Source: a virus | IMG/VR virus record: IMGVR_UViG_3300030104_006883 | Span: 1-64,000 of that record | Direction: 5' to 3' (one strand) | DNA length: 64,000 bases | The notes under the pieces: model-generated | Told to the model about the DNA's origin: nothing | Seen by the model: only the letters and a program-made list of their open reading frames with translations | Database searches by the model: none | Made by a program: the position numbers and the translations under genes | Shown here: positions 1-33,058 of the stretch, one piece after another | Layout of the letters: every line of letters begins with the position of its first letter | Numbering within the stretch: position 1 is the first letter of the stretch

Positions 1-1
1 C

Positions 2-76
2 GGTGGCGACCGCAAGAATCCCGGCCCAACACTGGAAAGAAACAGTATGCTGGAGTTTGTCAATGAAAGTCGGTGA
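2..76 (+). CDS. 3' end of a KOW/SH3-like array gene (partial, runs off left edge)
   Basis: Frame 2 open from the edge, ends ...LEFVNESR* across the junction repeat. Confidence 0.7.
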   Translation, partial: GGDRKNPGPTLERNSMLEFVNESR

Positions 77-233
77 TTTGGTAAGGCATACAAGAAACGG
101 AGAGCCATTCGGGGAAATCCTAGTGGTAACGGCACAGAAGCTCAGTGAGACAAAAAATGAGTTTGTCAAGCTTTCTGGCGGGAACCCGTGGCTACCAGCG
201 ATATGCATGACAGTTATCAGTGCAGCAGAATAA
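63..233 (+). CDS. KOW/SH3-like mini-protein, array member
   Basis: MKVGDLVRH...MTVISAAE*; GGAG SD inside the upstream gene. Confidence 0.8.
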   Translation: MKVGDLVRHTRNGEPFGEILVVTAQKLSETKNEFVKLSGGNPWLPAICMTVISAAE

Positions 234-273
234 ATCTTTACTTTTATTCTTTCTTGATTATAATGAGGGCATG

Positions 274-450
274 ATGAAAGTCGGTGATTTAGTAAAGTTT
301 ACAGTGTCGCAGTATCTAGGTACTATTATCTGTGTCGATGAGGCTCGATGCGGGATTTTCGTGCATGGCGAGGCTCCGTTTAAAAACCCTACCTGGATGA
401 GCATGGATATGCTCAAAAGAAACGCGGAGGCTATCAATGAAAGTCGGTGA
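274..450 (+). CDS. KOW/SH3-like mini-protein, array member
   Basis: MKVGDLVKF...AINESR*; follows promoter 237-264. Confidence 0.8.
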   Translation: MKVGDLVKFTVSQYLGTIICVDEARCGIFVHGEAPFKNPTWMSMDMLKRNAEAINESR

Positions 451-613
451 TTTGGTAAGATATAAAAGTGAGACACTAGGTTCCAACCCGGCTGTTTTGG
501 TGGTCGCTGTTCAACCGGGCATCGAAACCATGGTTGTCACTGTCAATCCTAACAGCGGCTTTCGTGCAGCCCGATTTGCGAATCAACTGGAGATTGTCAG
601 TGAAAGTCGGTGA
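437..613 (+). CDS. KOW/SH3-like mini-protein, array member (58 aa, below ORF-track cutoff)
   Basis: Hand translation MKVGDLVRYKSETLG...QLEIVSESR*. Confidence 0.8.
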   Translation: MKVGDLVRYKSETLGSNPAVLVVAVQPGIETMVVTVNPNSGFRAARFANQLEIVSESR

Positions 614-764
614 TTTTGTTACGATAAAGGGCAGAGAGGAATATGGAGCCGGTAAAATTATCAGGTTCTATGCTAATCAAGGTACCATTTTGGTTCAATT
701 TATTAAAAGAGAAGCGGTAGTATACTGCGACTATTCGGTATTGGAGAGTCATGAAAGTCGGTGA
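600..764 (+). CDS. KOW/SH3-like mini-protein, array member
   Basis: GTG start, KVGDFVTIK...LESHESR*. Confidence 0.8.
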   Translation: MKVGDFVTIKGREEYGAGKIIRFYANQGTILVQFIKREAVVYCDYSVLESHESR

Positions 765-921
765 TTTGGTAAGAGCGTCCCATTGGGATGAAAGTCACAC
801 TGCTGTCGTCATCAGTACAAAGCGCCTGGAGACTGGAATTGTTACAGTCTTGGGCTCTTTTGGCTGGGAACTTGACCAAGTAGCACGCGATTTGGAAATT
901 ATTAATAGCGCAGTGAAATAA
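751..921 (+). CDS. KOW/SH3-like mini-protein, array member (56 aa, not in track)
   Basis: Hand translation MKVGDLVRASHW...DLEIINSAVK*. Confidence 0.8.
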   Translation: MKVGDLVRASHWDESHTAVVISTKRLETGIVTVLGSFGWELDQVARDLEIINSAVK

Positions 922-971
922 AACTTTACTCTCTCTCTTGTGAGATTATAATCTAGCCATAGGAGGCAGCG

Positions 972-1193
972 ATGAAAGTGGGTGACATGGTTAGGCTTCT
1001 GGACGACCCAGAGGTTCGCAGGGATAACGCAGATATCCCCCCTGATGCTCTCGGCATCGTGGTTCAAGAGTCCTTGACTGCTTGTTTCCAGATGGGTGGA
1101 GCACTGCCGTCGATGTGGGTCCAGTGGCCCGGTCGCGACGATACAGACTCAATGTTTGTCGAAGACCTGGAGATTATCAGTGAAAGTCGGTGA
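972..1193 (+). CDS. KOW/SH3-like mini-protein, array member
   Basis: GGAGG SD, MKVGDMVRL...LEIISESR*. Confidence 0.8.
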   Translation: MKVGDMVRLLDDPEVRRDNADIPPDALGIVVQESLTACFQMGGALPSMWVQWPGRDDTDSMFVEDLEIISESR

Positions 1194-1350
1194 TTTGGTC
1201 AGATATAATGCAGGCGGCGAAAATTACAAGCTTTTGGCTATTGTAGCCAAACTTAATACGCCTGGAGGCACGGTGAGAGCTATCGATGCCAAAGGTAAGT
1301 TGCACTGGCTCGTCAGTTCTTGCTGCGAGGTCGTCAGTGAAAGTCGGTGA
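1180..1350 (+). CDS. KOW/SH3-like mini-protein, array member
   Basis: GTG start, KVGDLVRYN...CEVVSESR*. Confidence 0.8.
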   Translation: MKVGDLVRYNAGGENYKLLAIVAKLNTPGGTVRAIDAKGKLHWLVSSCCEVVSESR

Positions 1351-1504
1351 CTTGGTAAAGTGCGTCTCTGCTAATGGAGTTATCGGGCTGGTAGTAGAAC
1401 TTCGACGCGGCGCAACAACTCCGATGGTTTTCGATGTGCTCATTGGCAACAAATCATATCCCTTTTTGCCTCATCAGGTGGAGCCTATCAGTGAAAGTCG
1501 GTGA
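1337..1504 (+). CDS. KOW/SH3-like mini-protein, array member
   Basis: GTG start, KVGDLVKCV...VEPISESR*. Confidence 0.8.
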   Translation: MKVGDLVKCVSANGVIGLVVELRRGATTPMVFDVLIGNKSYPFLPHQVEPISESR

Positions 1505-1721
1505 TTTGGTAAAATATATTGGCTCAGATGCTATGTATCGCGACCGCATTGGCGTTGTCGCAAAGCTCTACGGGGCCATTGACGAGCGAATTGACTCTGC
1601 GCTGGTTCACTTCGCTGAACTCAAAGGCAAGGGCCGCGACGGGTTTCGGTTCGAGGACAACAACAACGGACTGCATCCGATGGCGCTCTTTGAAATTAAA
1701 ACTTTGACTTCTGAATCCTAG
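1491..1721 (+). CDS. KOW/SH3-like mini-protein, last array member
   Basis: GTG start, KVGDLVKYIG...EIKTLTSES*. Confidence 0.8.
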   Translation: MKVGDLVKYIGSDAMYRDRIGVVAKLYGAIDERIDSALVHFAELKGKGRDGFRFEDNNNGLHPMALFEIKTLTSES

Positions 1722-1750
1722 AGATTATAATGTGTGTGCAGGAGGCGACG

Positions 1751-2023
1751 ATGAGCCCAAGAGAAAGATGGGAAAAAAACTATAGGCAGGAGTTGTGGCA
1801 CACTTATGGTCCCGATTACAAAATCCCAAAGAAGGGAGACTTGATTGAGTTCAGGACTAACTTTTACACCAGCGACTCTGCTTTCGACCATGCTGTCGTA
1901 ACGGACGTGCACTTACCTACGGTATACTTCATCCTTCCAGACAAGGGGCCGATGTCCACCGGAGTGGCGTCTGTCCGTGTGATTAGTCGGCCTCCTCCGG
2001 GGCCAGAAGTTAACTATCGTTAA
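1751..2023 (+). CDS. Hypothetical protein with internal KOW-like KKGDLIEF motif
   Basis: GGAGG SD, own promoter, track ORF trimmed to ATG 1751. Confidence 0.7.
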   Translation: MSPRERWEKNYRQELWHTYGPDYKIPKKGDLIEFRTNFYTSDSAFDHAVVTDVHLPTVYFILPDKGPMSTGVASVRVISRPPPGPEVNYR

Positions 2024-2120
2024 AAAGTTTCTTTACTTTCCCAGAAGTGGGATTACTATTTATGTGTAAGCGGGGACATCGAGCCCCATCAGCCATTCAA
2101 TTTCATCAGGAGAATATAAC

Positions 2121-3191
2121 GTGGCTATTGATTTCAAAACTTTTGTAAATGTTGCTCCCCATGTCTGCGCTGTCCGCAAGCCCATTTTGCTTCGCGGTCG
2201 ACACGGTATCGGCAAGTCCGAGATTGTGTATCAGGTTGCGGAGGACATGGATATTCCGGTGGTTGAGCGCCGAGCCTCTCAGATGACTGAGGGTGATTTG
2301 CTCGGACTCCCGTCCACCGATGGTAACATCACTTCTTGGAATCCGCCGGACTGGCTGTCCACTGCATGTCGCGAGCCCGTTGTCCTGTTTCTGGATGAGG
2401 TCGACCGCGCCACCCCAGAGGTGCGACAGGGTATCTTCGAGCTTACTGACTCCCGCAAGATTGCGGGTCAAACGCTTCATGAGGACACTCTTATCTTTGC
2501 TGCTGTCAACGGTGGCGAGCATGGGGCACAGTATCAGGTTGGCGAGATGGACCCGGCAGAACTTGACCGCTACACAGTGTTCGATGTTGAGCCTACTGTC
2601 GAGGACTGGCTCGATTGGGCGAACAACAACGTTTCGACCCCTGTCTGGGACTTTATCAACCAAAATCGGTCGCACTTGGAGCATGTTGGAGAGTACGAGC
2701 CCAACAAGGTATACCCGTCGCGACGCTCGTGGAAACGACTCAACGACTGCCTTGAGCAAGGAGAGTTCTTGACCGATGTCAAGGAGGCTTCTGGCGGTGC
2801 TCTGTTCCATCTTGCTAGTGCTTTCGTAGGCTTCGAGGCTGCGGTTGCTCTCAACGACTTTTGCGCCAAGTATGACGCCCAAGTCACCATCGAGGACGTG
2901 ATTGACAACGGCGAGATTGAGAAGACCGAGAACTTTGGTATCAACGACCACTGTGCCCTCATTGACAAGATTGAGGCAGCAGAGATTCTCTCGGAGCCTC
3001 TCAACGAGAGCCAGATTCAGAACCTCGCAGACTACTTCGTGACTCTGCCGAGCGAGGCTTCCATGAAGCTTTGGACAGTCCTGGGTCGCGGTGACAACGC
3101 CAACGTGATTGCCTTGCACAAGTCAGAGGCCAAGGACGGCACCCGTGTCGCTCAGCGACTCGTCACGATGCTGACTGGTGATAATAGCTAA
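2121..3191 (+). CDS. MoxR-family AAA+ ATPase
   Basis: Walker A GRHGIGKS, Walker B LFLDEVDR, MDPAELDR sensor/arginine region, YPSRRSW. Confidence 0.9.
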   Translation: MAIDFKTFVNVAPHVCAVRKPILLRGRHGIGKSEIVYQVAEDMDIPVVERRASQMTEGDLLGLPSTDGNITSWNPPDWLSTACREPVVLFLDEVDRATPEVRQGIFELTDSRKIAGQTLHEDTLIFAAVNGGEHGAQYQVGEMDPAELDRYTVFDVEPTVEDWLDWANNNVSTPVWDFINQNRSHLEHVGEYEPNKVYPSRRSWKRLNDCLEQGEFLTDVKEASGGALFHLASAFVGFEAAVALNDFCAKYDAQVTIEDVIDNGEIEKTENFGINDHCALIDKIEAAEILSEPLNESQIQNLADYFVTLPSEASMKLWTVLGRGDNANVIALHKSEAKDGTRVAQRLVTMLTGDNS

Positions 3192-3204
3192 ATAAAACTT
3201 GACA

Positions 3205-3315
3205 GGCTGGGGTACCGTAATTATAAATAACCTGTTCAATGCCACTACGAACGGTATCGTTGACGGTGGATAGCAAGGTTGGGCAATGCGAGCAAACCCA
3301 ACCCCCAGCCGCTTT
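3205..3315 (+). ncRNA. Candidate structured RNA or palindromic element
   Basis: GGCTGGGG (3205) pairs with CCCCAGCC (3303); internal GGTTGGG/CCCAACC and AACG/CGTT hairpins; no SD-led ORF. Confidence 0.35.
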
Positions 3316-3366
3316 TAATTTTACTTTCTCGAATCTGTGACTACAATGTAAGCACAGGAGGCAGAT

Positions 3367-4575
3367 ATGTCAGACTTCAACTTGAATGACCATGTTCACA
3401 GGCTGCTGATGCGAGAGACTTTTCTCGCTGCGCTCTCTCGTCGCGTTGACAAGCGGGCGAACAGTTCAGTGCCTACAGCGGGTGTCAGGGTCAATCCAGA
3501 TACCGCGCACTTCGAGCTTGTCTACAATCCGTCCTTCTTCGAGGGGTTGACGGATGAGCAGCGCACGGGTGTCCTCATGCACGAGTTCTATCACCTTGTG
3601 TTCGAGCATGTGACCGGAAGACTTCCAGACGAGATTGCGGGCGTCATGAAGAATCAGAACGCTAGCAAGGAAGAGAAGCAGTTGTTCCGATTGTGGAATG
3701 TCGCGGCAGACCTGTCTATCAATTGTTTGATTGGCAAGGATAGCCTGCCAGATAACTGCTGTATCCCTGGTGGCGAGAAGTTTGAAGATATGCCCGCTAA
3801 CAAGACGGCAGAATGGTACTTCGACAAGCTAAAAGAGAAGCGCGAGCAGCAGAAAGAAAACGGTGAGGGGGACTCTGACCCCTACGAGGGCAGTCAATTC
3901 GACGACCACGGTGGTTGGGGTGAGGTGGATGAGACTACGGCAGAAATGGCTAAGGAGCGCTTGAAGGAGGCCATCAAGGGCGCGGCCAACGAGGCTGCCG
4001 AGGCAAACTCCTGGGGCAGTGTTAGCCAAGAACTGCGCCGTCAAATTCTTGAGCGAATCAGTGCCAAGGTTGACTGGCGCAAGGTTCTGCGCTACTTCGT
4101 TCGCACGTCTCAACGAGCAGACAAACGCTCGACTGTGCGACGAATCAACAAACGATTCCCGTACATCCATCCAGGCAAGAAGGTCCGACGAAACGCCAAT
4201 ATCGCGGTATCGATTGACCAGTCTGGCTCTGTGAGCGACGACATGCTTGCAGCTTTCTTCAATGAATTGAATAAGTTGGCAGACATCGCTACCTTTACTG
4301 TGATTCCATTTGACACCAGGGTCGCGGAAGACAAGGTGTACACATGGAAACGTGGCGAGACTCGCGCATGGGAGCGAGTGCTAACGGGAGGCACAGACTT
4401 CAATCCACCGACAGACTACGTAAACGCGCGTAACTTCGATGGACATATCGTCTTGACCGACATGTGTGCCCCCAAGCCTAAGCCTAGCAAGTGCCAGCGT
4501 ATGTGGATGACTACCAAGAATTACGCGAGTAATCCGTACTTCAGTACGACAGAGCGCGTGATTGCAGTAGATTAA
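3367..4575 (+). CDS. Metallopeptidase-like (HEFYH) plus vWA domain protein, partner of the MoxR ATPase (DUF2201-like)
   Basis: HExxH, WNVAADLSIN, MIDAS DQSGS, GGTDF. Confidence 0.85.
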   Translation: MSDFNLNDHVHRLLMRETFLAALSRRVDKRANSSVPTAGVRVNPDTAHFELVYNPSFFEGLTDEQRTGVLMHEFYHLVFEHVTGRLPDEIAGVMKNQNASKEEKQLFRLWNVAADLSINCLIGKDSLPDNCCIPGGEKFEDMPANKTAEWYFDKLKEKREQQKENGEGDSDPYEGSQFDDHGGWGEVDETTAEMAKERLKEAIKGAANEAAEANSWGSVSQELRRQILERISAKVDWRKVLRYFVRTSQRADKRSTVRRINKRFPYIHPGKKVRRNANIAVSIDQSGSVSDDMLAAFFNELNKLADIATFTVIPFDTRVAEDKVYTWKRGETRAWERVLTGGTDFNPPTDYVNARNFDGHIVLTDMCAPKPKPSKCQRMWMTTKNYASNPYFSTTERVIAVD

Positions 4576-4623
4576 AGTTTGACCTTTCGCTCAATGTGGT
4601 TATAATGTTTACAGGAGGAAGCA

Positions 4624-4794
4624 ATGAGCATTGAAGATATCTATCTCGATGAGGGATGTGAGATTGAAGAGATTGACATTGACCCTGATTACTATATGGG
4701 GTACGAGGATTACGATGAGGATGTCGCGACCTTCCAAGACCAGGATATGCATGACTTCTCTTATTATGATTCTCTGAGTGTTTCGGAGTATTAA
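4624..4794 (+). CDS. Very acidic 56-aa protein
   Basis: Own promoter, GGAGG SD; 20 D/E, 8 Y, no K/R. Confidence 0.75.
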   Translation: MSIEDIYLDEGCEIEEIDIDPDYYMGYEDYDEDVATFQDQDMHDFSYYDSLSVSEY

Positions 4795-4931
4795 TGAAAA
4801 AGATTATTGTCATAATCGGACTACTCTACGTCGGATATACATACGGCGACCAGATTAGCAGTATCGGGTCTGAGATGGTTGACCACGCGAAACCGGCGTG
4901 GGAGCAGCTTCAAGAGTTTTTGGAAAAATAA
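4794..4931 (+). CDS. Small protein with N-terminal hydrophobic anchor
   Basis: TAATG coupling; MKKIIVIIGLLYVGYTYG... Confidence 0.6.
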   Translation: MKKIIVIIGLLYVGYTYGDQISSIGSEMVDHAKPAWEQLQEFLEK

Positions 4932-4979
4932 CTTTACTTGTTTAGCTCGGTGGCTATAACTTAGTCACAGGAGGCGACA

Positions 4980-5564
4980 TTGAATCACAAGACAATACTA
5001 CAGACGCTAAAGCGAGAGTCTCTCACTGACTGGGAGCGACGGTTTTGTGAGTCATTATCCTCTGCCTTGGACAAGTACGGTAGCCTGACCGAAAAGCAGA
5101 CCGAGACTGTCCAGAAGCTACAAAGTAAGTATTGTCCAGAGGCGAAGATAGCTCGTGAGAATTGGAAAAATAACTTTACTTCTGAAATGCGCGAGACTAT
5201 GATACTCGTGGCGAAGTACTACAGACAGAACCCGCCCTGGTATTCTGACCTTGCTATGAAAGTCGTTTCGGACCCAGAGTTTGTTCCGACTGAAAAGCAG
5301 TATAATGCCATGTGCTTGAACAAGTACGCCCAGAGAGTGCTGGAGAATTGGAGAAGTCAGCACATCTATGAGCCGGGTGTTCTCGTTGTTACACGCAAGG
5401 GTGCTGACCTTCACAATTTGTTTGGTGAGCGCCCATTGGTGGTTCTTAAACAGCTACCCAAGACTCTCACCCCCACCAGAGGTCAGAACAGTTACGAGGT
5501 TCTGCCTGCCGGGAAGGATGAAAAGTTTATTCTCTCTGAGAAAGAAATTAAAAAGCTCAGGTAA
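4980..5564 (+). CDS. Hypothetical protein
   Basis: Promoter, GGAGG SD, TTG start, 194 aa. Confidence 0.7.
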   Translation: MNHKTILQTLKRESLTDWERRFCESLSSALDKYGSLTEKQTETVQKLQSKYCPEAKIARENWKNNFTSEMRETMILVAKYYRQNPPWYSDLAMKVVSDPEFVPTEKQYNAMCLNKYAQRVLENWRSQHIYEPGVLVVTRKGADLHNLFGERPLVVLKQLPKTLTPTRGQNSYEVLPAGKDEKFILSEKEIKKLR

Positions 5565-5612
5565 AACTTTACTTGATACAACTCGTGATTATAATGAGTG
5601 CAGGAGGATGAG

Positions 5613-5786
5613 ATGAATAACCTACTTGAAATTGCATACGCACTTAGCGTCGCTACAACGCAGGCAATCACGTCTTTCGCCCAAGTTAGAGCGCAACAGG
5701 ATGCGGTTAAGAATCTGAGCGACACTGAAATTCAAAAGCTTGTTGGCAAATCATCTACGAAGTCACCCATCGGATTTAATTGTTGA
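5613..5786 (+). CDS. Hypothetical protein
   Basis: Promoter 5568, GGAGG SD. Confidence 0.6.
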   Translation: MNNLLEIAYALSVATTQAITSFAQVRAQQDAVKNLSDTEIQKLVGKSSTKSPIGFNC

Positions 5787-5950
5787 AAGTGACCGAGTAT
5801 GTTGTCCAGGTGCGAAGCGAATATAATCAGAACACCGAGTACGTGTTCTATTCGCGAGAGTCGGCTTATCGCAAGATGCGACAGCTTTTGAGTGACGGCC
5901 AATGCGCTTGGATTGAGACACGCTTCGTGACCGATGACATCCCGTTCTAA
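5783..5950 (+). CDS. 55-aa protein ending in TDDIPF (SSB C-terminal tail-like)
   Basis: TTGA overlap with upstream stop; hand translation. Confidence 0.6.
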   Translation: MKVTEYVVQVRSEYNQNTEYVFYSRESAYRKMRQLLSDGQCAWIETRFVTDDIPF

Positions 5951-6105
5951 AAACGTGTCCGAAAAAATTTTCCCTTTTTCTTTACTTTCCAAGGAGTGTG
6001 ACTATAATGTTCGTGAGCAGACAAAGACAGTTGCTCGAAGGCATTTGGTTTTCATTTATGATGGTTGGCCTCCTCTTTGGGATGGCCTGTCTTTAGGAGA
6101 CAGTT

Positions 6106-6426
6106 ATGAGTTGGGTGATTGAGTGTCCAGAGGGACTCAGCAAGACGGGACAACGAGCCGCTGTTATCATGAACGACTTCATGAAGAAATATAATCTTCA
6201 GACGGGCGGTTGCCAGACCTTGTATCACCCAGAAGAGTGGAAGGGCCGAGGCGAGAAGTATGGCACCGAATCAGAGCTTGTAATCGTGTACGACGGTGGC
6301 GACCTCTACGATATCATGGATGGCTACCTGTACAACCTTCAGGACGAGCTTATTCAAGCCTTCGATGCTATCGGCGTTTACTTCGAGCCCTGCACCCATT
6401 GGTATTGCGCGGTCTACAAGGGTTAA
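6106..6426 (+). CDS. Hypothetical protein
   Basis: GGAG SD, 106 aa. Confidence 0.7.
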   Translation: MSWVIECPEGLSKTGQRAAVIMNDFMKKYNLQTGGCQTLYHPEEWKGRGEKYGTESELVIVYDGGDLYDIMDGYLYNLQDELIQAFDAIGVYFEPCTHWYCAVYKG

Positions 6427-6474
6427 AAGTTTGACTATGCGAGGAATGTGGTTATAACTTAATCACAGGAGGCG

Positions 6475-6624
6475 ATGATGCTTGACCACGCATACAAACA
6501 GCTTGACCTTGAAGAGAAGCGCCAGTGGGAAGAGTTCGAGGGCAAGCGCCGCGAACACGAAGAGCGCGAGAATAACAAAAAAAACATTGACAATGATAGT
6601 CATGTGGTTATCATTGAGTTGTAA
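6475..6624 (+). CDS. Small charged hypothetical protein
   Basis: Promoter 6431, GGAGG SD; MMLDHAYKQLDLEEKRQW... Confidence 0.55.
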   Translation: MMLDHAYKQLDLEEKRQWEEFEGKRREHEERENNKKNIDNDSHVVIIEL

Positions 6625-6634
6625 GGAGGTGAGC

Positions 6635-6982
6635 ATGAAACGGGTTTATGCCGTCACATCGCGAAACCAGGATGGTACCGAGCAGAATGAGCTAGGCATC
6701 TATTCAAGTTTCAAGAAGGCACACTCCGTGGCCAGAGCTTGCATGCTCTACGTGAGCGGAACCACCGACTATGCCTATCAGCAGGTCCAGTTCGATGACC
6801 ACCGTGGCGATGCATGTTGGGTTGGAAAGTTTCCAGACGAACCCTACAATTACATCTCCGTTGAGGTTCGCGCGCTCGATGAAGACCCAGACTTCGCCGT
6901 CAGGCACGAAGAGACGGGTGAGACGCTCCTCGTCTACTCCGCTAACCCTTACATCACGAAGGTCTACGACCTCACGCGATAA
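6635..6982 (+). CDS. Hypothetical protein
   Basis: AAGGAGGT SD before MKRVYAV. Confidence 0.7.
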   Translation: MKRVYAVTSRNQDGTEQNELGIYSSFKKAHSVARACMLYVSGTTDYAYQQVQFDDHRGDACWVGKFPDEPYNYISVEVRALDEDPDFAVRHEETGETLLVYSANPYITKVYDLTR

Positions 6983-7052
6983 AAACTCATCCGAAAAAAT
7001 TTTCTTTACTTCCTAACCAATGTACTTATAATGGGTGCACATGGAGGTTGTT

Positions 7053-7331
7053 ATGCAGAGAGGACAGGGAACAAGAATTGCTTTTGGTGCTTTGAGCGTG
7101 GCTAAAGATAGCGACCCTCGGCTCTTCATGAAGCGCGTTGTGTTCGTCGATAATGTCAACGTTGGACACTACGACATCTACAAGCCCTACATGGAAGGGG
7201 CAGCTTGGGAGGTTTACCTTTGGTCAGACCGTTTCGAGTTTGCGCGATTCCGTACCACCCTGTTTGACGCAGACAATTGTGCGCGGGACAAGTTCACGCG
7301 ATACTTCCTCGGAGATAATTCCGAGAGCTAA
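7053..7331 (+). CDS. Hypothetical protein
   Basis: GGAGGT SD, own promoter. Confidence 0.65.
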   Translation: MQRGQGTRIAFGALSVAKDSDPRLFMKRVVFVDNVNVGHYDIYKPYMEGAAWEVYLWSDRFEFARFRTTLFDADNCARDKFTRYFLGDNSES

Positions 7332-7389
7332 GAAATAAAACTTTACTCTAAACCTAATGTGACTATAATGGTTACATAAGGAGGAAGAT

Positions 7390-7578
7390 ATGAAAGGCAG
7401 GCCCAAGAAGGGTGACTTGGTTGAGGCTCACTCAGGAAACTTGACCAAGGTCGGAGTGGTCGTTGACAGTATCTTCTCGTGGGCGACCATGGATGACTCG
7501 TTCATTGTCCAGTTGAATGATGGTGCAAGGCGAATCCATGTGCCACGCGACCAGTTGTCGGTGATAAGCGACAAATAA
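7390..7578 (+). CDS. KOW/SH3-like mini-protein (solo copy)
   Basis: KKGDLVEAH...GVVV...LSVISD; own promoter. Confidence 0.7.
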   Translation: MKGRPKKGDLVEAHSGNLTKVGVVVDSIFSWATMDDSFIVQLNDGARRIHVPRDQLSVISDK

Positions 7579-7631
7579 AAACTTTACTCTATTACCAGTG
7601 TGGTTATAATGACTACACAAGGAGACAAGCT

Positions 7632-7817
7632 ATGAAAGAGACTGTCATTATGGAGGCCGCTAAGACGGTGGCTACGATTGAGGACAAGGGCCAGCGATTC
7701 GATGTTGCTATCGCCTTTGTGAAGACGGGTGTCTTGGATGGTCTACCTACCGAGCGAGCACTTCAATGGTGGTGCAGGGCCATGGGTCATACGACGCTCA
7801 AAACGTTGGCGATTTAA
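7632..7817 (+). CDS. Hypothetical protein
   Basis: Own promoter, AAGGAG SD. Confidence 0.65.
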   Translation: MKETVIMEAAKTVATIEDKGQRFDVAIAFVKTGVLDGLPTERALQWWCRAMGHTTLKTLAI

Positions 7818-7875
7818 GAAATAAAACTTTACTCCAACAGTAGTGTGATTATAATAGTCACATAAGGGGGAAGCT

Positions 7876-8070
7876 ATGAAGATTGGCGACTTGGTTCAGA
7901 CCCGAATGGGTACAAAGGGAATCATTGTTGGCGTGAGGCGAGGTGCTCCCCAGCCAGATGAATGTGACTACGATGAGTTCGAGGTTTACTGGTCTGCTGA
8001 TGGTGTTTCTTTTTGGTACGACCCTGATGACTTTGGCCATCGTGGTGAGCTTGTGGTGACTTCACCTTAG
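7876..8070 (+). CDS. KOW/SH3-like mini-protein (solo copy)
   Basis: MKIGDLVQT...GIIV...VYW...LVVTS; own promoter. Confidence 0.75.
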   Translation: MKIGDLVQTRMGTKGIIVGVRRGAPQPDECDYDEFEVYWSADGVSFWYDPDDFGHRGELVVTSP

Positions 8071-8287
8071 CAAAAAAAAACTTTGACATTACATGAGTAG
8101 TGTTTATAATGTATGTGTAGCCAAGTGGGGAAGCTTGGCAGGAAACATGTTGTTTCTGAGAGAGGCTTAGGGTAGGAAAATAAAAAAGTGGTAAGAAGTG
8201 GGTGAGTACTTGATACCCCCGCTATCTCTTGTCAAGGCTTTTTTTGCTACCCAAGTAACCGTAAACCTGCAATATATAGGAGGGTAT

Positions 8288-8350
8288 ATGTTTGCACTAG
8301 GATGTGTTACCATGGTTATGGTGTCGCTCCGTGTTTTGTTCCTTCACTAG
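8288..8350 (+). CDS. 20-aa hydrophobic peptide
   Basis: GGAGG SD; MFALGCVTMVMVSLRVLFLH*. Confidence 0.35.
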   Translation: MFALGCVTMVMVSLRVLFLH

Positions 8351-8438
8351 AGAAAAAAAGGGACAATGACAATAAAAAAAGATTGACTTCTAGACACAGT
8401 GCGCCTATAATGGGTACATACAATAAAGGAGGTGCTTC

Positions 8439-8618
8439 ATGAAGCGCACTATGTCTTATAAGAACCGTAACTTTGCGGTAACTGCCGAGGTGGACACTAC
8501 AGCCAAGAAGGCTGGTAGCAACACCTTCAAGGTTCGCCAGGGACGTAGCACTCAGGTTTATAACCGCCGCTACGCACGGGTTCTTCGTGACCAGCTTAAT
8601 ACTTTCCTCGGAGAGTAA
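8439..8618 (+). CDS. Basic 59-aa protein, possible nucleic-acid binder
   Basis: Promoter 8383, AAGGAGGT SD; MKRTMSYKNRNF... Confidence 0.7.
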   Translation: MKRTMSYKNRNFAVTAEVDTTAKKAGSNTFKVRQGRSTQVYNRRYARVLRDQLNTFLGE

Positions 8619-8822
8619 AAAGTAAAAAAACCACGCAATTCCGCGTGTTTATAGCTCCTGGGTAAGAGCAAGGTTATGCTAAACTGCCCAACCTACACAA
8701 ATTAGGCGAAAATAATTGTCTAATGATTTCCACTACTTAATAGAGTTTTCTCTAGGTGGAGATAAAAAAACTTTGACTCTCGGCCCATTGTGCTTATAAT
8801 GGTTACACAAGGAGGCAGAGAA

Positions 8823-8918
8823 ATGACGGATGAAGAACTTCGCGAAGCACTCAGGCTTCTTCTAAAGGTCTGGGAGAAGGGAGGCAAAGAAGCCGCCGAG
8901 GCTTTGTTGGCCAAGTAG
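8823..8918 (+). CDS. 31-aa helical peptide
   Basis: Promoter 8773, GGAGG SD; MTDEELREALRLLLKVWEKGGKEAAEALLAK*. Confidence 0.6.
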   Translation: MTDEELREALRLLLKVWEKGGKEAAEALLAK

Positions 8919-9039
8919 AAAAAAAAGCTTGACTCCCGCCTCATAGGCATTATAATGAGAGGGAGACAGACAGAAACCCTAGCGAGGAGAATAGAAATAA
9001 ATAATTGACAGAGCGTACCCACCATGATAAGATGGTCGG

Positions 9040-9195
9040 GGCTTGCTCTCTCAGAGACGGGTTATCCAACGTCCGCCAGCTAGGAAACCGTGAGAGAGTA
9101 TTGAAAAGGGAATCGCTCCCCCTTCCGGAGACAGTGTGCGGACAAACTAACCAATCAACACGGGCTGGGCAACCCTGCAAAACTGCCCAGTTTTT
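9040..9195 (+). ncRNA. Candidate small RNA with own promoter and terminator
   Basis: Promoter 9005-9033; 10-bp stem 9044-9053/9091-9100 with nested hairpin; further hairpins; no SD-led ORF. Confidence 0.55.
9165..9195 (+). terminator. Intrinsic terminator
   Basis: CTGGGCA-N12-TGCCCAG followed by TTTTT. Confidence 0.65.
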
Positions 9196-9197
9196 AA

Positions 9198-9375
9198 ATT
9201 CGTATCTTCTACCCTGGGGTGGTGGAACCTTCTGAAGACGTTCAGATGTGGGCTCGCAATTATCACGCGAGCACATATGGAGAGACACGCCTCTGATGAT
9301 AAAGAGGTGCTAGACGGATGCCGATTCCGTCAGCGTGCCAGTTCGAATCTGGCCTCCAGGGTAGAATATATGAAT
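9198..9375 (+). ncRNA. tRNA-like RNA with expanded multi-hairpin core
   Basis: 13-bp terminal stem 9207-9219/9354-9366; T-arm GCCAG-TTCGAAT-CTGGC 9337-9353; GG-containing D-loop-like segment; four internal hairpins. Confidence 0.65.
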
Positions 9376-9506
9376 ACTTTCAAGCACTTAGAAAAAAAGT
9401 GCAAAAGAAGTAAAAAAATACTTTACTTCGCTGCTCAGGTTGTTACTATACATGTGTCGGCAGGGATGACCGACAAACCTTCAACCCTTATCAAAGGGAG
9501 GCCATC

Positions 9507-9851
9507 ATGGCCCAGTTCGCTTCTTCTTTCGGTTCCAAAGAGCGCAAGGCTAAGGCCAAGGCCCGTGGGGCAAGCTACTCGCACCGTCGTCAGTCCCGTG
9601 CGGGCGTCGTTCAGGTGTTCACCGCTGACCCTGGCTGCGAGGTCAACGTCATCCGTGACGGTGATACCTTCATCGTCGCCACCTTCCGCAACGGTCGTAT
9701 GGCTGGACAGCCCTCCGTCCACAAACATGGGTACCAGGCTGCTCGTGAGAGCGCTCAGACGCTCGCCAAGGTACTGAAGTCCAGTGCCCGCCCTGACCCG
9801 CGCAGCGAGGTCATGCGTATGGCAGACGCCCTGCTCGCGGACCTGTCCTAG
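9507..9851 (+). CDS. Basic hypothetical protein
   Basis: Promoter 9422, GGGAGG SD, strongly biased codons. Confidence 0.75.
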   Translation: MAQFASSFGSKERKAKAKARGASYSHRRQSRAGVVQVFTADPGCEVNVIRDGDTFIVATFRNGRMAGQPSVHKHGYQAARESAQTLAKVLKSSARPDPRSEVMRMADALLADLS

Positions 9852-9974
9852 TACTGAACAAATGTCTGAAAAACGACATAACAATAAATAAAAGTATTGC
9901 GTTCTCTCCTCGGCTATGGCATTATATATACATGGTCGAGGGAGAATGAACTCCCCGGCTGACCCGCGAGGGAT

Positions 9975-10739
9975 ATGATGAGCGACCTGACTCTTCACGG
10001 TGAGAACGTTGAGGGCCTCTGCATCAAGATGGCCAAGCAGCACGTTCGCAACGGACTTCAGTTCGATGACCTGCTCCAGCAGGCTCGCATGGGTGCTGTC
10101 ATTGCAGCACAGAACTACGACCCCACCAAGGGTGCCAAGTTCTCGACCCATGCTTACATGTCCATTCGCGCCTACTGCCAGCAGGCTGTCCAGGCTAACC
10201 GGGCTGCGTCTGGTTCTTCCCGTCTGGCCAAGGCCCTGTTTCACAAGCTTCCTGCCTGCCAGCGTGAGCTTCAGACCCAGGGGCTTGACGTGAACCCTCA
10301 CAACATCGCAGAGTGGCTGGAGGCCAATAGCAATTGGTCTGTCTCCACCTCCGAGGTCGAGCAGGCTCTTCTGATTGTCAAGGAGCGCACCGTCTCCATG
10401 TCCAAGCCTATGGGCGACAGTGACAAAAATAACTTTGGTGATACCCTGGTGTCCCGTGAGTTGAGCCAGCACGAGAAGCTTGTGCGCACCCGACGAGCCG
10501 AGGCTATCCGTGACGCCATGTCCACCTTCCTGGTGTCCTTCCTTCCCACGAAGCAGCGACGTGCACACAACAAGTACGTGGCAGTCTTCAACGGTCGCCT
10601 GCTTCCCATCCTGAATGGAGAGGATGTGCTGACCTTGGAAGAGGTCGCTGATTCTCTGGGTACTTCAAAGCAGCGTGTTGGCCAGATTGAGAATGACCTG
10701 AAGAACGCTCTGAAGAATCACATGAAGGGGAACCTTTAA
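9975..10739 (+). CDS. Sigma-70 family RNA polymerase sigma factor (group 3/RpoH-SigB-like), divergent
   Basis: Region 2 DDLLQQARMGAVIAAQNYDPTKGAKFSTHA; region 3 SMSKPMGD; region 4 LTLEEVADSLGTSKQRVGQIE. Confidence 0.85.
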   Translation: MMSDLTLHGENVEGLCIKMAKQHVRNGLQFDDLLQQARMGAVIAAQNYDPTKGAKFSTHAYMSIRAYCQQAVQANRAASGSSRLAKALFHKLPACQRELQTQGLDVNPHNIAEWLEANSNWSVSTSEVEQALLIVKERTVSMSKPMGDSDKNNFGDTLVSRELSQHEKLVRTRRAEAIRDAMSTFLVSFLPTKQRRAHNKYVAVFNGRLLPILNGEDVLTLEEVADSLGTSKQRVGQIENDLKNALKNHMKGNL

Positions 10740-10740
10740 A

Positions 10741-10980
10741 ATGATTAACAAGACCAAGACTTACGGGTTCACCCTAGACTTCTATCTTGACGTGGGTATC
10801 CTCCTCTCAGAAAAGTACAAGGGTCGTGTTGACTATGGCTTCAAGCTTGGGGATGTCCTTGACGCTCGGCAGTATATCGTGAAGGAGTTGTGTCTTCGCG
10901 AGTCATGGAAGGACAGCGAATGTCTGGCGCGTCTGTGTGAATCGTTTCTGCGGCGCTGGGCTTATAAAATGAAAGACTAA
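10741..10980 (+). CDS. Hypothetical protein
   Basis: Directly follows the sigma gene. Confidence 0.6.
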   Translation: MINKTKTYGFTLDFYLDVGILLSEKYKGRVDYGFKLGDVLDARQYIVKELCLRESWKDSECLARLCESFLRRWAYKMKD

Positions 10981-11003
10981 AAAGAAAAGCTTGACAACCA
11001 AGA

Positions 11004-11057
11004 GGGAGGTCCCCCCTCCCCCCTACCTACCCGGAATGTAATCCCTAGTGATTCCGG
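11004..11057. other. GC-rich inverted repeats at a compositional boundary
   Basis: GGGAGG/CCTCCC hairpin, C-tract, CCGGAAT-N13-ATTCCGG. Confidence 0.55.
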
Positions 11058-11141
11058 GCACTTAGGAGCCGACCTAGACCCTGCGTTATATCGCCAGGAA
11101 ATTTTCCAGATTTTGTAACCCCGTAACCACTAGTTATTATT

Positions 11142-11375
11142 ATGGAAGAAAACACTACGGGGGAGCTACAACAGGAAAATCATTCCGAGATTGTAGACAA
11201 ATTAAAAAAAGAAATTGATAAGCTAAAGGCAAACGTCGATCGACTAGCTAACCGTTTACTTGAAGAGAAAACAGAAAAACAGTTGCTACAGATAATGGCC
11301 GATATAAAGAACGGCAATGATCCGAACGAGAAACCATGGCCTATAGAGCGTCAAAAGCCCAGCAAGGGCGAATAA
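11142..11375 (+). CDS. Coiled-coil hypothetical protein
   Basis: Heptad pattern. Confidence 0.6.
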   Translation: MEENTTGELQQENHSEIVDKLKKEIDKLKANVDRLANRLLEEKTEKQLLQIMADIKNGNDPNEKPWPIERQKPSKGE

Positions 11376-11442
11376 ACGGCTATTCCTGCCATTTTAAACC
11401 TATGCCTATAATTGGCAACGCCAAAAATACCGGGAAAAAAAT

Positions 11443-11691
11443 TTAGGATTCCGAGACTACGATTAGGTTGTTGACTGGCTGCACTTGATCGGGCTGTCCT
11501 TTGAACTCTTCGAATTTGATCCACTCTATTTCTGCATAATCTTCGTAGTAATGCTTTGCCTTGGCAGTCTTAAGCGTTGCGCTTTGGAATAATTTAGTAA
11601 TAACCCCTAAACAAGGAAGATAATGTATGTTAAAATTTCTTCCTGGGTATTTGCTTTTTATACTTACTAAATCACCAACCTTGATGTCCAT
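11443..11691 (-). CDS. KOW/SH3-like protein (solo copy)
   Basis: MDIKVGDLV...GVI...IEW...LIVVSES. Confidence 0.7.
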   Translation of the reverse strand: MDIKVGDLVSIKSKYPGRNFNIHYLPCLGVITKLFQSATLKTAKAKHYYEDYAEIEWIKFEEFKGQPDQVQPVNNLIVVSES

Positions 11692-11723
11692 GTAAGTAAT
11701 TAGAATTTTAGGAACTAATTATT

Positions 11724-11945
11724 ATGAATGAAATGGCTTACGATACAACAAATTTAATTGACTTTACCTTAATAAAGTTAAAGAGGATGCGCGACGAAGC
11801 GCGAAAGATAGCATGGTTCGACATGGTAGCACAATTAGAAATGGCTATAGAATTGTACGAACAAGGAAGAGCGACAATAGATTGGGTGGACGGTGAGCCA
11901 CTACTTACACTAAGGAGTGTACTAGATGATAATCAAGAAAAATAG
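11724..11945 (+). CDS. Hypothetical protein
   Basis: Motif-preceded ORF. Confidence 0.65.
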   Translation: MNEMAYDTTNLIDFTLIKLKRMRDEARKIAWFDMVAQLEMAIELYEQGRATIDWVDGEPLLTLRSVLDDNQEK

Positions 11946-12240
11946 ATTGGTAGAGATAATCAAAGAAGAGCTAGCTAGGTTTGAAGAGGTTGCAAATATT
12001 GGAGCCGACGTAAACTCTAGCTATAAAGAAGGGTATGACTACGAAGACGACGGATACGCTGATGATGAGATGGAGCATAGGAGAGACGCCTACGAAGAAG
12101 AGCATGGAGAACGCATGCCGAATCCATTGATTAAGCCGTCCGAACGTCTATCCGGACAGGAGCAAGCTGATAACTTTTTTCGTTCGATGTACGAGAAAGG
12201 TTGGAAAGGGCCTGGTACACCTTGGCCTAAGTCTGAGTAA
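11926..12240 (+). CDS. Acidic protein with IIKEEL-type leader
   Basis: MIIKKNRLVEIIKEELARFEE. Confidence 0.65.
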   Translation: MIIKKNRLVEIIKEELARFEEVANIGADVNSSYKEGYDYEDDGYADDEMEHRRDAYEEEHGERMPNPLIKPSERLSGQEQADNFFRSMYEKGWKGPGTPWPKSE

Positions 12241-15784: not shown

Positions 15785-15831
15785 AAAATACTCAGAAACT
15801 ATTTACGGATATAAAGATCCCAGGATAGTTA

Positions 15832-16113
15832 ATGAAGTTTAAGATAGGTGATTTAGTCACTCTTAAAGACTCATCTAAAGAAAATCGTAAGCATACGGCT
15901 AGGCAGTGTAGGCTAGGTGTTATACTTGCTTATGAGACGCTTAACGATGTCTTGTTGTACAAAGTACACTGGTGGCCGTTTAATCAACCTTTCTATTTTG
16001 AAGGCCATGACCTAGAGATAGCATCTAGAGTCTTTTTACATGACCCTATACCCATAGGGGGTAGTGGCTCACTTATCATTGATGATGATTTTCCCATAGG
16101 ATCTAACGACTAG
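15832..16113 (+). CDS. KOW/SH3-like protein (solo copy)
   Basis: MKFKIGDLV...GVIL...VHW...DLEIAS. Confidence 0.7.
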   Translation: MKFKIGDLVTLKDSSKENRKHTARQCRLGVILAYETLNDVLLYKVHWWPFNQPFYFEGHDLEIASRVFLHDPIPIGGSGSLIIDDDFPIGSND

Positions 16114-17896: not shown

Positions 17897-18214
17897 ATGC
17901 AGAAAAAAGGATCAAAAATTTTCTTGCCGAAGAAAAAGACTAGGTGGAAAAGCATCTCCGAAAACGAAGTAGAAATATCTTATGAAGATGATAAAGGAGA
18001 TTTGACTATAATAGGTAAGGTTTTTAGAAAACCGTTTACTCTAAAATGGAACATAGATGTATATTTTTTTCTACCCAATAGTCACACAATAGATTTAGAC
18101 GAAACTTTTGATAGTGAGATAGATGCAGGAAGAAGAGTCGCTAACTTGTGGGAAGTAAACAGAGATTATGAATATTTTAATTTAGAGAGTTTTTATGACG
18201 AAACAATTTATTAG
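17897..18214 (+). CDS. Hypothetical protein
   Basis: ORF in co-directional run. Confidence 0.6.
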   Translation: MQKKGSKIFLPKKKTRWKSISENEVEISYEDDKGDLTIIGKVFRKPFTLKWNIDVYFFLPNSHTIDLDETFDSEIDAGRRVANLWEVNRDYEYFNLESFYDETIY

Positions 18215-20093
18215 AGTTCTTACGTTACTATTACTAACAGTAGCGTTGATGACTTGCTCCGAGAGTCAAAACGAGAGAGCAGAACTTACGTTTGATACAA
18301 AATCGCATATCTTTAATAAATCTCTCTCTCCGGAAATGATTCACTATTTTGCAAAAAACAATTATGAAAAAAGATGTTATAAATTTGAATTTTACTTTTG
18401 TCCTCCGCTAGACGAAGTTTGGCAAATGCAGGTTACAACAGATGTCTGCAAAGATCCTCCTGAAATCATTTCTATTAGCGAGTGCTTTGAAATCTTTGAA
18501 TGCGACCCAAGCACACCGGACTTGGGAGATGTTGATTGTACAACTGATGATGGATACCCCGGTACTCAAAAGAAAATTTGTGATAAAGGTAAAATAAAAT
18601 ATACTGATTGCACCTCTTTGTGTTCTGAAGAAATCTGCGACTACGAGGACAATGATTGTGATGGCCATATCGATGAGGGGCAGAGGAACGCTTGCGATGA
18701 ATGTGGCTTCTTGCCGGAAGAAGCTTGTGATAACGTGGATAACGACTGTGATGGTGGTACTGATGAGGACTTGATTCAAGACTGCTATTCTGCTTGTGGG
18801 GGCGGTATTGAGTACTGCGTTGGTGGTATCTGGGTTTCTTGCACAGCGCCCCCTGTCCAGACAGAAATATGTGACGGATTCGACAACGATTGCGATGGAC
18901 AAATCGATGAAGGTATAAATTGTGAGTGTACAATCGCAGACGTTGGAGTTCTTTTCCCTTGTAAAGAAGAACCTTTAATATGCGGGGAAGGATATAAAAC
19001 TTGCGAATGCACAACGCCGGACTGCTCGGAGATTTTGACAACAGACTGTGTATCTCCTTGTGTGTATTTCCCGGTACCGGACGAGGAATGCGATCCTACA
19101 AAAGGTGCTGTTGCTGCTGAAGAATGTAATAATTATGATGATAACTGTAATCAATTAATTGACGAAGACTTGTTTGAAATGTGTTACACTGCTGACCCAG
19201 AGACGCTGTTTGTAGGTATTTGTAAACCTGGTATTCTGACGTGCTACAAAGGGACTTGGGGCAATTACTTTGAGGGTATACCTGACTATTTCGTACCGGG
19301 TCTTTGCAAAGACGAAGTAACACCTCAAGAAGAAATTTGCGATGGTGTAGATAACGATTGTGATGGCGAAACAGACTCAGGGGAAGAATTGGGACCTGTT
19401 GACGTTCTCTTTATCGTTGATTGGTCAGGATCGATGGATACAGAGATATATGCTGTTATGTCTGCTCTTAATAAGTTTGCTGCTAGCTACAGTGACGAAG
19501 AGGTTTTACAATGGGGTACTATTCTAGGACCTATAGACCACGCTTGGAATAATTCAGAATACTTAAATCTTTACCATAATCTTAGTGGATTTAGTGACTT
19601 TCTATCTTCAATGTCACAATTAAATATAAGTTCTTGGGCAATGTCGGGTGCTAGAGAGATGATGATGGACGCGATATATCTCTCGTTGCACAATCTCGTT
19701 GGGTCTGGGTCTTTGCCAGTTGCCATTCCCCCGTTGAAATGGGCCACAGGCACTGGAGTTACTGAATCTCAACCTCCAATAAAAGATTTTATCATTAACT
19801 GGCGAACCGATCCAGAGGTTAAAAGAGTTATCGTGCTGTTTACCGACGAGGGCTCTCAAAGCTATACTATTCCGGATATCACACAAGATATCCTGCTTGA
19901 ACTAATAGGAAAAATTACAAATACTAAAATATACATATTTTCTCAAACAATTCATAAGGACAACTGGATTGCGCTTGAGGGATGGGATCCCCTTTGTGTC
20001 GCTTCTGGCGGCAAATGGTACCAGCTAACTGACGATATGGTGACTATGTATAATAGCCTAATGGAAATTATTGACGAAAACGCCTGTAAGTAA
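18195..20093 (+). CDS. Cys-rich lipoprotein with five putative metal-binding (MopE-like) repeats and C-terminal vWA domain
   Basis: Lipobox-like LMTC; five ExCD/NxxDNDCDG-type repeats; MIDAS DWSGS. Confidence 0.8.
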   Translation: MTKQFIRVLTLLLLTVALMTCSESQNERAELTFDTKSHIFNKSLSPEMIHYFAKNNYEKRCYKFEFYFCPPLDEVWQMQVTTDVCKDPPEIISISECFEIFECDPSTPDLGDVDCTTDDGYPGTQKKICDKGKIKYTDCTSLCSEEICDYEDNDCDGHIDEGQRNACDECGFLPEEACDNVDNDCDGGTDEDLIQDCYSACGGGIEYCVGGIWVSCTAPPVQTEICDGFDNDCDGQIDEGINCECTIADVGVLFPCKEEPLICGEGYKTCECTTPDCSEILTTDCVSPCVYFPVPDEECDPTKGAVAAEECNNYDDNCNQLIDEDLFEMCYTADPETLFVGICKPGILTCYKGTWGNYFEGIPDYFVPGLCKDEVTPQEEICDGVDNDCDGETDSGEELGPVDVLFIVDWSGSMDTEIYAVMSALNKFAASYSDEEVLQWGTILGPIDHAWNNSEYLNLYHNLSGFSDFLSSMSQLNISSWAMSGAREMMMDAIYLSLHNLVGSGSLPVAIPPLKWATGTGVTESQPPIKDFIINWRTDPEVKRVIVLFTDEGSQSYTIPDITQDILLELIGKITNTKIYIFSQTIHKDNWIALEGWDPLCVASGGKWYQLTDDMVTMYNSLMEIIDENACK

Positions 20094-32984: not shown

Positions 32985-33058
32985 GCCTCCTTAGCTCAGT
33001 TGGCCAGAGCAGTTGATTTGTAATCAACAGGTCGTCCGTTCGAATCGGACAGGGGGCT
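32985..33058 (+). tRNA. tRNA-Thr(TGT), CCA not encoded
   Basis: Cloverleaf GCCTCCT/AGGGGGC, anticodon loop TTTGTAA, T-loop GTTCGAATC. Confidence 0.95.

Follow-up and report, generated by a model that had tools for sequence, protein, structure and literature searches.

The first 1,721 nucleotides (nt) of the window, that is, of the whole 64,000-nt stretch of DNA analysed here (positions 1 to 64,000 of the IMG/VR virus record IMGVR_UViG_3300030104_006883), carry a chain of small genes encoding proteins of 54–76 amino acids (aa) and joined by a short sequence that is read in two frames; comparison with related viral loci shows that whole genes are shuffled at this joint. The source is an uncultured marine T4-like phage with a circular genome of ~185 kb, and we consider it probable that the chain is a cassette-shuffled array of paralogous small β-barrel genes, which, throughout a clade of such phages, lies within the early hyperplastic region and is rearranged by homology-driven exchange. 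A first-pass annotation, made from the letters and open reading frames (ORFs) of this DNA, had counted at least ten genes in the above size range; nine are complete (g1–g9) and the tenth (g0) is present in the window as its 3′ end only (see Table 1).

At seven joints, the end of one gene and the beginning of the next overlap by 14 nt, the 14-mer RTGAAAGTCGGTGA encoding both the (N/S/H)ESR-stop of the upstream protein and the MKVGD of the downstream one; all seven dual-frame junctions listed in the first-pass annotation (63, 437, 600, 751, 1180, 1337 and 1491) are correct. An eighth exact copy in the window, at 274, opens the promoter-led gene g2 and overlaps no gene, so that retention of the 14-mer does not depend on an overlap, and a copy with one mismatch is found at 972; in shuffled sequence, with two mismatches allowed, the mean number of occurrences is 0.86 and the maximum 3. 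The conserved module is in fact ~32 nt wide, covering roughly positions −12 to +20 relative to the start codon, and contains the Shine–Dalgarno sequence (SD), the start and the stop in the following layout: TGGAGGT (the SD, which falls on the codons for Leu-Glu-Val), a short spacer whose last letters are ATCA, the 14-mer and TTTRGT; the ~25-nt module proposed earlier, comprising last strand, stop, SD and first strand, was too narrow. Overlaps of 10–60 nt are much rarer among prokaryotic genes than those of −1, −4 and −8 (PMC10666635). The geometry of the joint is compatible with that of gene pairs coupled by termination–reinitiation (PMC6728339, PMC10666635), and translational coupling across it is plausible; the SD is strong enough to permit independent initiation as well. 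At one joint elsewhere in the full record (position 182429 of G000, locus L001), GGC in place of GGT abolishes the stop, and the upstream protein extends as NESRRSC.

The chains are interrupted at 237, 925 and 1704 by sigma70-like promoter modules, and the terminal genes upstream of these lack ESR, both as claimed in the first-pass annotation. Ten sigma70-like promoter sites were found against 3.2 expected by chance; the promoter-like matches that start at the joints at 1180 and 1491 are weaker and due solely to the hexamer GTGAAA. No stem-loop terminator was found at any joint (terminator-like sites, 4 vs. 3.5 by chance). A hairpin in the joint, with arms ATCA/TGAT and AAGTC/GAYTT, was considered and rejected for lack of covariation (p=0.37–0.57).

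Rearrangement is directly visible at the locus of the window, whose relatives are identified by the same flanking 90-aa and AAA genes. In three separate assemblies (L150–L152) the gene order is g7, g5, g0, g9, and a fourth (L153) reads g7, g5, g0 before the sequence ends; in addition, the genes of a JGI record match these in size. The cassettes of these four loci are 81–89% identical to those of the window, where the order is g0, g5, g7, g9, and therefore deletions alone cannot interconvert the two arrangements. The relatives' g5 homologue (89% identical), which follows g7, ends in NESR within a joint, while the window copy ends in SAVK before a promoter; identity between the two stops where the tail changes, the tail going with the module that follows. 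Other relatives differ at the joint downstream of g7, for which five downstream partners have been seen: in L194 g8 is absent and g7 is joined straight to g9, seamlessly, within a shared 17 nt; in L154 a different gene takes the place of g8, with a 16-nt insertion at the joint; in L195 yet another gene does so. Moreover, a 4,864-nt contig from run X4 matches positions 434–616 only, i.e. cassette g3 in another context. Pieces from run X9 end at 616 and resume at 752, an unbridged hint of g4 loss. Joints with sides shorter than 40 nt in metagenome contigs, which probably come from other phages sharing the motif, were not used. Gain, loss, replacement and reordering of whole genes are thus observed, in line with the earlier suggestion that any gene could be swapped at the junction, and order and content are not identical among related phages, although identity in these respects was named in the first-pass annotation as something that would refute its reading.

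The same behaviour is found across the clade, for which the counts rest on the at least 118 viral loci listed, most of them picked by the motif. A tandem-motif scan of viral contigs returned at least 118 stretches, many on contigs of 185–200 kb; the listed loci hold at least 1,031 genes in at least 567 families as defined by core similarity (a rough Chao1 estimate gives ~1,900), and at least 950 distinct family genes were counted, at least 641 of which have the 14-nt overlap. When loci were picked by the AAA gene instead of the motif, family genes were present in 20 of 25. Of 602 exact 14-mers, 593 mark the beginning of an ORF that is 35 or more codons long. Homologous cassettes in different loci are followed by a different cassette in 76 of 77 pairs at 75–90% identity and in 34 of 86 pairs at ≥90%, pairs of 100%-identical proteins included. 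Identity is ~0.9 throughout the gene and ~0.25 just beyond the module on both sides, the fall itself being built into this comparison. When everything was aligned against everything else without such bias, 101 of 170 alignments had their left end between −18 and +5, and 78 of 180 had their right end between +12 and +29, so that alignments end at the joint about four to five times as often as a uniform share would predict. Within the module, the variable positions track the upstream gene to about +9 and the downstream gene from about +16, in noisy data, the switch in linkage from one gene to the other taking place between about +1 and +15; most crossovers should therefore fall in the 14-mer. 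Relative to other small genes of the same regions, taken from a simple ORF caller, family cassettes keep their neighbour less often at 75–90% identity (7/129 vs. 12/60; Fisher p=0.003) and change order more often in pairs of loci (22/49 vs. 5/45).

Other types of joint occur in related lineages, either a 10-nt overlap ending in CK-stop or a 4-nt ATGA overlap. Four AAA-anchored loci (L137, L139, L143 and L147) represent a lineage with the 10-nt joint, in which LEVICK-stop lies over MQVGD, and in L147 the 14-, 10- and 4-nt joints are mixed in one locus. Overlap type is concordant within loci (0.63 vs. 0.46, p=0.0002), and most occurrences of the 10-nt type belong to a single supported clade in the AAA tree; such lineage-bound types fit homogenisation within lineages better than a single universal recognition site.

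The mechanism that we favour can be outlined as follows. The sequence for the last strand of one protein (LEV-, with the SD) shares 14 nt with that for the first strand of the following one (MKVGDLV), and the same ~32-nt sequence is therefore present at every internal boundary. Crossovers within this joint would delete, insert, replace or move whole genes, which is the outcome observed, and the SD, start and stop would be restored intact to either side of each crossover. The exchange is presumably homology-driven and the work of the phage's own RecA/UvsX, gp32 and nucleases, acting while DNA is replicated or when different phages infect the same cell, because G000 yielded no integrase, resolvase, Rad52-type annealing protein or reverse transcriptase (tyrosine recombinase PF00589, 0 matches in the phage genome) and because joints differ by lineage. 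Reordering may proceed by excision and reinsertion, or by out-of-register exchange between genomes; repeated exchange would keep the joint uniform within a lineage, and expression would be early, from the sigma70-like promoters.

Several observations weigh against this reading. No circle or event in progress is seen in the assembled contigs; a perfect-match core of 14–20 nt is short for RecA-type recombination; the replacement in L154 is imprecise; only two members have been folded, one of them (g6) at low confidence. About ten assemblies of the window's own population (96–100% identical) keep the window order; the process is evolutionary rather than a fast phase switch. Pairs of loci and of cassettes are not independent of one another, and it was the motif that served to select most of the loci. 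Breaks at gene borders would be favoured by selection in any case, and non-family small genes of the same regions change neighbours too (48/60 at 75–90% identity), part of the signal therefore being general plasticity. These last points lead to a different account, in the manner of the Hendrix-type moron model, whereby illegitimate recombination occurs anywhere, selection keeps the intact borders and the joint is a by-product of dual coding and descent. The imprecise L154 join suits it, as does the fact that the codons for MKVGD contain a stop when read in the −1 frame, making ESR-stop automatic, and among long overlaps of prokaryotic genes phase 1 (−8, −11, −14) is the more frequent one (PMC10666635). 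On the other hand, family cassettes lose neighbours more than the controls do and reorder four times as often, and the L194 join is seamless. Val3 is encoded by GTC in 83% of joints and, among free genes, in 54% (the two motif matches that selected each locus having been removed first), compared with 6% at Val7 and 21% in gene bodies; protein constraint is a poor account of this preference, since GTA also yields Ser-Arg and the ESR is dispensable, being replaced by other endings in many homologues. On balance, the by-product account appears rather unlikely.

A true integron-like system, in which a sequence-specific recombinase of an unrecognised family, encoded by phage or host, cuts in the 14-mer, would explain why synonymous positions are strongly conserved across many phages, why crossovers are limited to a short interval and why the order permutations fit excision and reinsertion. 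It sits badly with the lack of any tyrosine or serine recombinase in a record whose completeness is rated at 100%, with the lack of a covarying hairpin in the joint, with the different and mixed joints of related lineages (10-nt CK-stop, 4-nt ATGA) and with the near absence of tandem motifs from cellular genomes, so that we regard it as improbable. Finally, all data come from metagenome assemblies whose contigs break at joints, and de Bruijn assemblers could join co-occurring phages at a 20–30-nt repeat; that the shuffling is such an artefact is nevertheless very hard to believe, the alternative order being present in four assemblies, with contig names suggesting different pipelines, and the window order in about ten, several of all these assemblies having been made at k 77–141, far over the repeat length, and the tail of g5 changing in step with its neighbour. 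Homology-driven cassette shuffling remains the preferred explanation.

As for the proteins, g7 is confidently predicted to be an SH3/KOW/Tudor-like barrel: its five-strand model (predicted local distance difference test, pLDDT, 92) matches Tudor 6wau (Z 9.3, root-mean-square deviation 2.2 over 55 residues) and the Spt5/NusG KOW structures 4zn3 (Z 8.8) and 2xhc (Z 8.3), and also resembles many unnamed viral proteins (Atlas template modelling score 0.85). The SH3-like small β-barrels (Tudor, Spt5/NusG KOW, DfrB/R67, DsrB) share the same five-strand barrel of 50–60 residues, at sequence identities of 7–24%; a fold held in common does not reveal a function. The model of g6 is weaker (pLDDT 77, best Z 4.5), its top matches being mostly SH3-like, including CarS, an antirepressor that is a small SH3-fold protein acting as a binder (PMC2926617); profile comparison relates g6 to g7 with a probability of 84%, and the nearest named families of g2 and g3 are SH3-like, with scores <0.9. 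Pfam and PHROG scans of the ten array proteins gave nothing significant. The small β-barrel postulated by the first-pass annotation is thus supported by the model of g7 and, more weakly, by that of g6. The family consensus (KVGDLV, G(I/L)VV, VxW, LEVI) corresponds to the strand pattern of a g7-type barrel; the VxW strand noted earlier stands at the level of the family and is not found in every member, and the ending LE(I/V)(I/V)S is strict in two complete window genes only (g3 and g6).

Across 70 families, the ratio of non-synonymous to synonymous substitution rates (dN/dS) in the core is 0.16, with no difference between polar and hydrophobic sites, and no positive selection in loops is seen in these families; hypervariable loops, as previously proposed, are therefore unsupported as ongoing diversification, and the diversity lies between families. 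Each family is a real, conserved protein under purifying selection. The net charge of family proteins spans about −8 to +5 (5th to 95th percentile), a spread that would fit varied binding partners, and the likeliest role, to which we would give roughly even chances, would be to bind host proteins or nucleic acids and so to serve takeover of the host or counter-defence.

The full virus record containing the window (G000; 185,927 nt) has a completeness rating of 100%. The metagenome runs that hold the stretch are marine, with no RNA dataset among the runs listed, and the gene content includes a T4-type terminase, GroEL, DnaE, RecA, gp32, a 5′-3′ exonuclease and DnaB, in addition to a phosphoesterase-AAA protein resembling SbcCD; among deposited phages the capsid protein has distant relatives only (35.7% over its length). 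No tandem-motif stretch and no match to the array was found in deposited or cultured phages, a metagenome scan with g3 returned distant family members only, and the scan of cellular genomes gave six stretches (L155–L160), two on long contigs and four on short contigs of metagenome-assembled genomes, the latter of which may be misbinned phage. No published description of this joint system was found in the literature searched, most subscription journals lying outside it.

The array runs past the left edge of the window, as had been predicted, its upstream part lying at the contig end (G000 174–185.9 kb). The last 488 nt of the record (185440–185927) resemble window positions 1–485 with 90% identity, the ends being identical over 77–79 nt, and in other assemblies the contig end is continuous into the window, each carrying one allele or the other; the genome is therefore circular, with a strain bubble over g1, g2 and their promoter. 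The dN/dS values between the two alleles are 0.11 and 0.28. A tandem duplication of g1–g2 at the contig end is thereby ruled out, and other scaffolds have an N gap at exactly 78–408; the apparent loss of g1–g2 in L176/L177 is an N gap as well and no deletion. A family profile search of G000 found ~27 members, all in the arc that begins at 174 kb, crosses the origin and reaches 16 kb; this arc has a higher G+C content, is crowded with small genes and promoter modules, and includes a sigma70-family factor gene (regions 2 and 4; window 9975–10739) at the end of what we infer to be the early hyperplastic region. An Rfam search of window positions 1–12,000 gave no match.

To the right of the array, the MoxR-like AAA_5 ATPase and the DUF2201 metallopeptidase-vWA protein form a pair (2121–4575), each with its own promoter, that adjoins the array in many relatives. 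Farther away, the window encodes a 632-aa protein (18195–20093) with Cu-binding MopE-type repeats (PF11617), which are common in Myxococcota and a weak pointer to the host of this phage, a phage tmRNA (24567–24878; tag ANDNVTFDYALAA), a tRNA-Thr gene (32985–33058) and, from 40559 to 64000, a long run of large ORFs whose N-termini look, by eye, like those of glycosyltransferases or nucleotide-sugar enzymes. Elsewhere in G000, an 800-aa ORF has internal repeats of 80–300 nt with 71–89% identity (156700–158260), and a Pol A-family fragment of 394 aa (138411–139595) is present alongside the full DnaE polymerase (151754–155182).

Table 1. Coordinates (window numbering) of the array genes, joints, promoter modules and related neighbouring features.
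Feature	Coordinates	Strand	Remarks
g0, 3′ end	2–76	+	62-aa family member; start at contig end (G000 185327); NESR-stop in junction 63
Junction module g0/g1	51–82	+	SD, start, 14-nt overlap, stop
g1	63–233	+	56 aa; terminal, without ESR; 57-aa allele at contig end and in other assemblies
Sigma70-like promoter module	237–264	+	TTTACT-16-TATAAT
g2	274–450	+	58 aa; promoter-led; opens with exact 14-mer
Junction module g2/g3	425–456	+	
g3	437–613	+	58 aa
Junction module g3/g4	588–619	+	
g4	600–764	+	54 aa; GTG start; four further viral loci hold homologues (core identity 59–79%)
Junction module g4/g5	739–770	+	
g5	751–921	+	56 aa; terminal in window; ends SAVK
Sigma70-like promoter module	925–952	+	
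g6	972–1193	+	73 aa; promoter-led
Junction module g6/g7	1168–1199	+	
g7	1180–1350	+	56 aa; predicted five-strand SH3/KOW/Tudor-like barrel
Junction module g7/g8	1325–1356	+	Five different downstream genes among relatives
g8	1337–1504	+	55 aa
Junction module g8/g9	1479–1510	+	
g9	1491–1721	+	76 aa; terminal; final codons overlap next promoter; last gene of array in relatives too
Sigma70-like promoter module	1704–1731	+	TTGACT-16-TATAAT
90-aa gene	1751–2023	+	Internal KKGDLI motif; right flank of array, conserved in relatives
MoxR-like AAA_5 ATPase	2121–3191	+	Locus anchor for relatives
DUF2201 metallopeptidase-vWA protein	3367–4575	+	Flank
Dispersed family member	7390–7578	+	Promoter-led
Dispersed family member	7876–8070	+	Promoter-led
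Dispersed family member	11443–11685	−	
Dispersed family-like member	15829–16113	+	C-terminal extension

The array is a real, clade-wide feature and a variation on linker-mediated modular evolution, its most unusual aspect being the scale of the paralogue library. It provides a concrete linker for modular evolution as conceived by Botstein and Campbell, the linker being the gene border itself, and a crossover inside the joint leaves whole, expressible genes; the origin of hyperplastic regions thereby becomes directly testable via a single 32-nt sequence. With hundreds of barrel-like sequence families, each conserved by purifying selection, and some 27 members in the presumed early region of a genome, the clade offers a ready and cheaply synthesised panel for counter-defence and host-takeover screens. 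A bolder and rather doubtful extension is that the clade shares a pool of roughly 1,000–2,000 barrel families, each binding a different host defence or regulatory target, which would be dealt via the self-rebuilding coding joint, possibly through circular intermediates; if true, this pool would be the phage counterpart of an integron array, made entirely of coding sequence, and would represent an extensive, so far unexploited supply of anti-defence proteins.

Among known systems, integron arrays consist of promoterless single-gene cassettes, variable in content and order and read from an upstream promoter. Single-gene cassettes varying in content and order are found here too, whereas no IntI-type recombinase is encoded in G000 and the boundary is coding sequence; no attC-type imperfect palindrome is present among the inverted repeats listed, and the 14-nt overlap leaves no intergenic site. 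The resemblance to integrons drawn in the first-pass annotation therefore holds as an analogy only, given the missing recombinase gene, the lineage-specific joints and the shuffling, to a lesser extent, of neighbouring non-family genes. A diversity-generating retroelement is at variance with the low within-family dN/dS, with the 0 matches to reverse transcriptase PF00078 and with the lack of long internal repeats in the array; by the features tested, the array is neither an integron nor a diversity-generating retroelement.

In the lpl genes of Staphylococcus aureus (Tsuru and Kobayashi 2008; PMC2568036), tandem paralogues recombine at a stretch of coding sequence that is conserved in each of them, and in the array, too, such a sequence marks the points of exchange. 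The lpl site, however, lies mid-gene, so that the moving unit is made up of halves of two genes and chimeras result, whereas the much shorter, phage-borne site described here lies at an overlapping gene border and the unit is the whole gene; no unit made of gene halves is seen, identity running through the whole gene and ending at the border.

Together with the lpl cluster, the closest parallel is with the PeSL (promoter-early stem-loop) cassettes of the T4-type phages RB49 and phi1, in which an intergenic promoter and stem-loop flank unrelated ORFans and mini-circles have been shown (Arbiol et al. 2010; PMC2839356). Both cases concern a T4-like phage and a hyperplastic early region where small ORFans are inserted, deleted or replaced at a repeated linker, with no dedicated recombinase identified; the joint of the array differs in that it codes in two frames (SD, start and stop) and joins paralogues probably of one fold, in that it has neither a sigma70-like promoter nor a stem-loop, and in that the assembled contigs show no circle. 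The array thus works like PeSL shuffling and yet falls outside the PeSL class, its linker having no promoter or stem-loop. The promoter modules at 237, 925 and 1704 are its more PeSL-like part; from 234 to 9420 the window contains many near-identical sigma70-like modules (TTTACT or TTGACT, TATAAT and an SD), often beginning at the preceding stop codon, and these are probably a second, PeSL-like class of linker.

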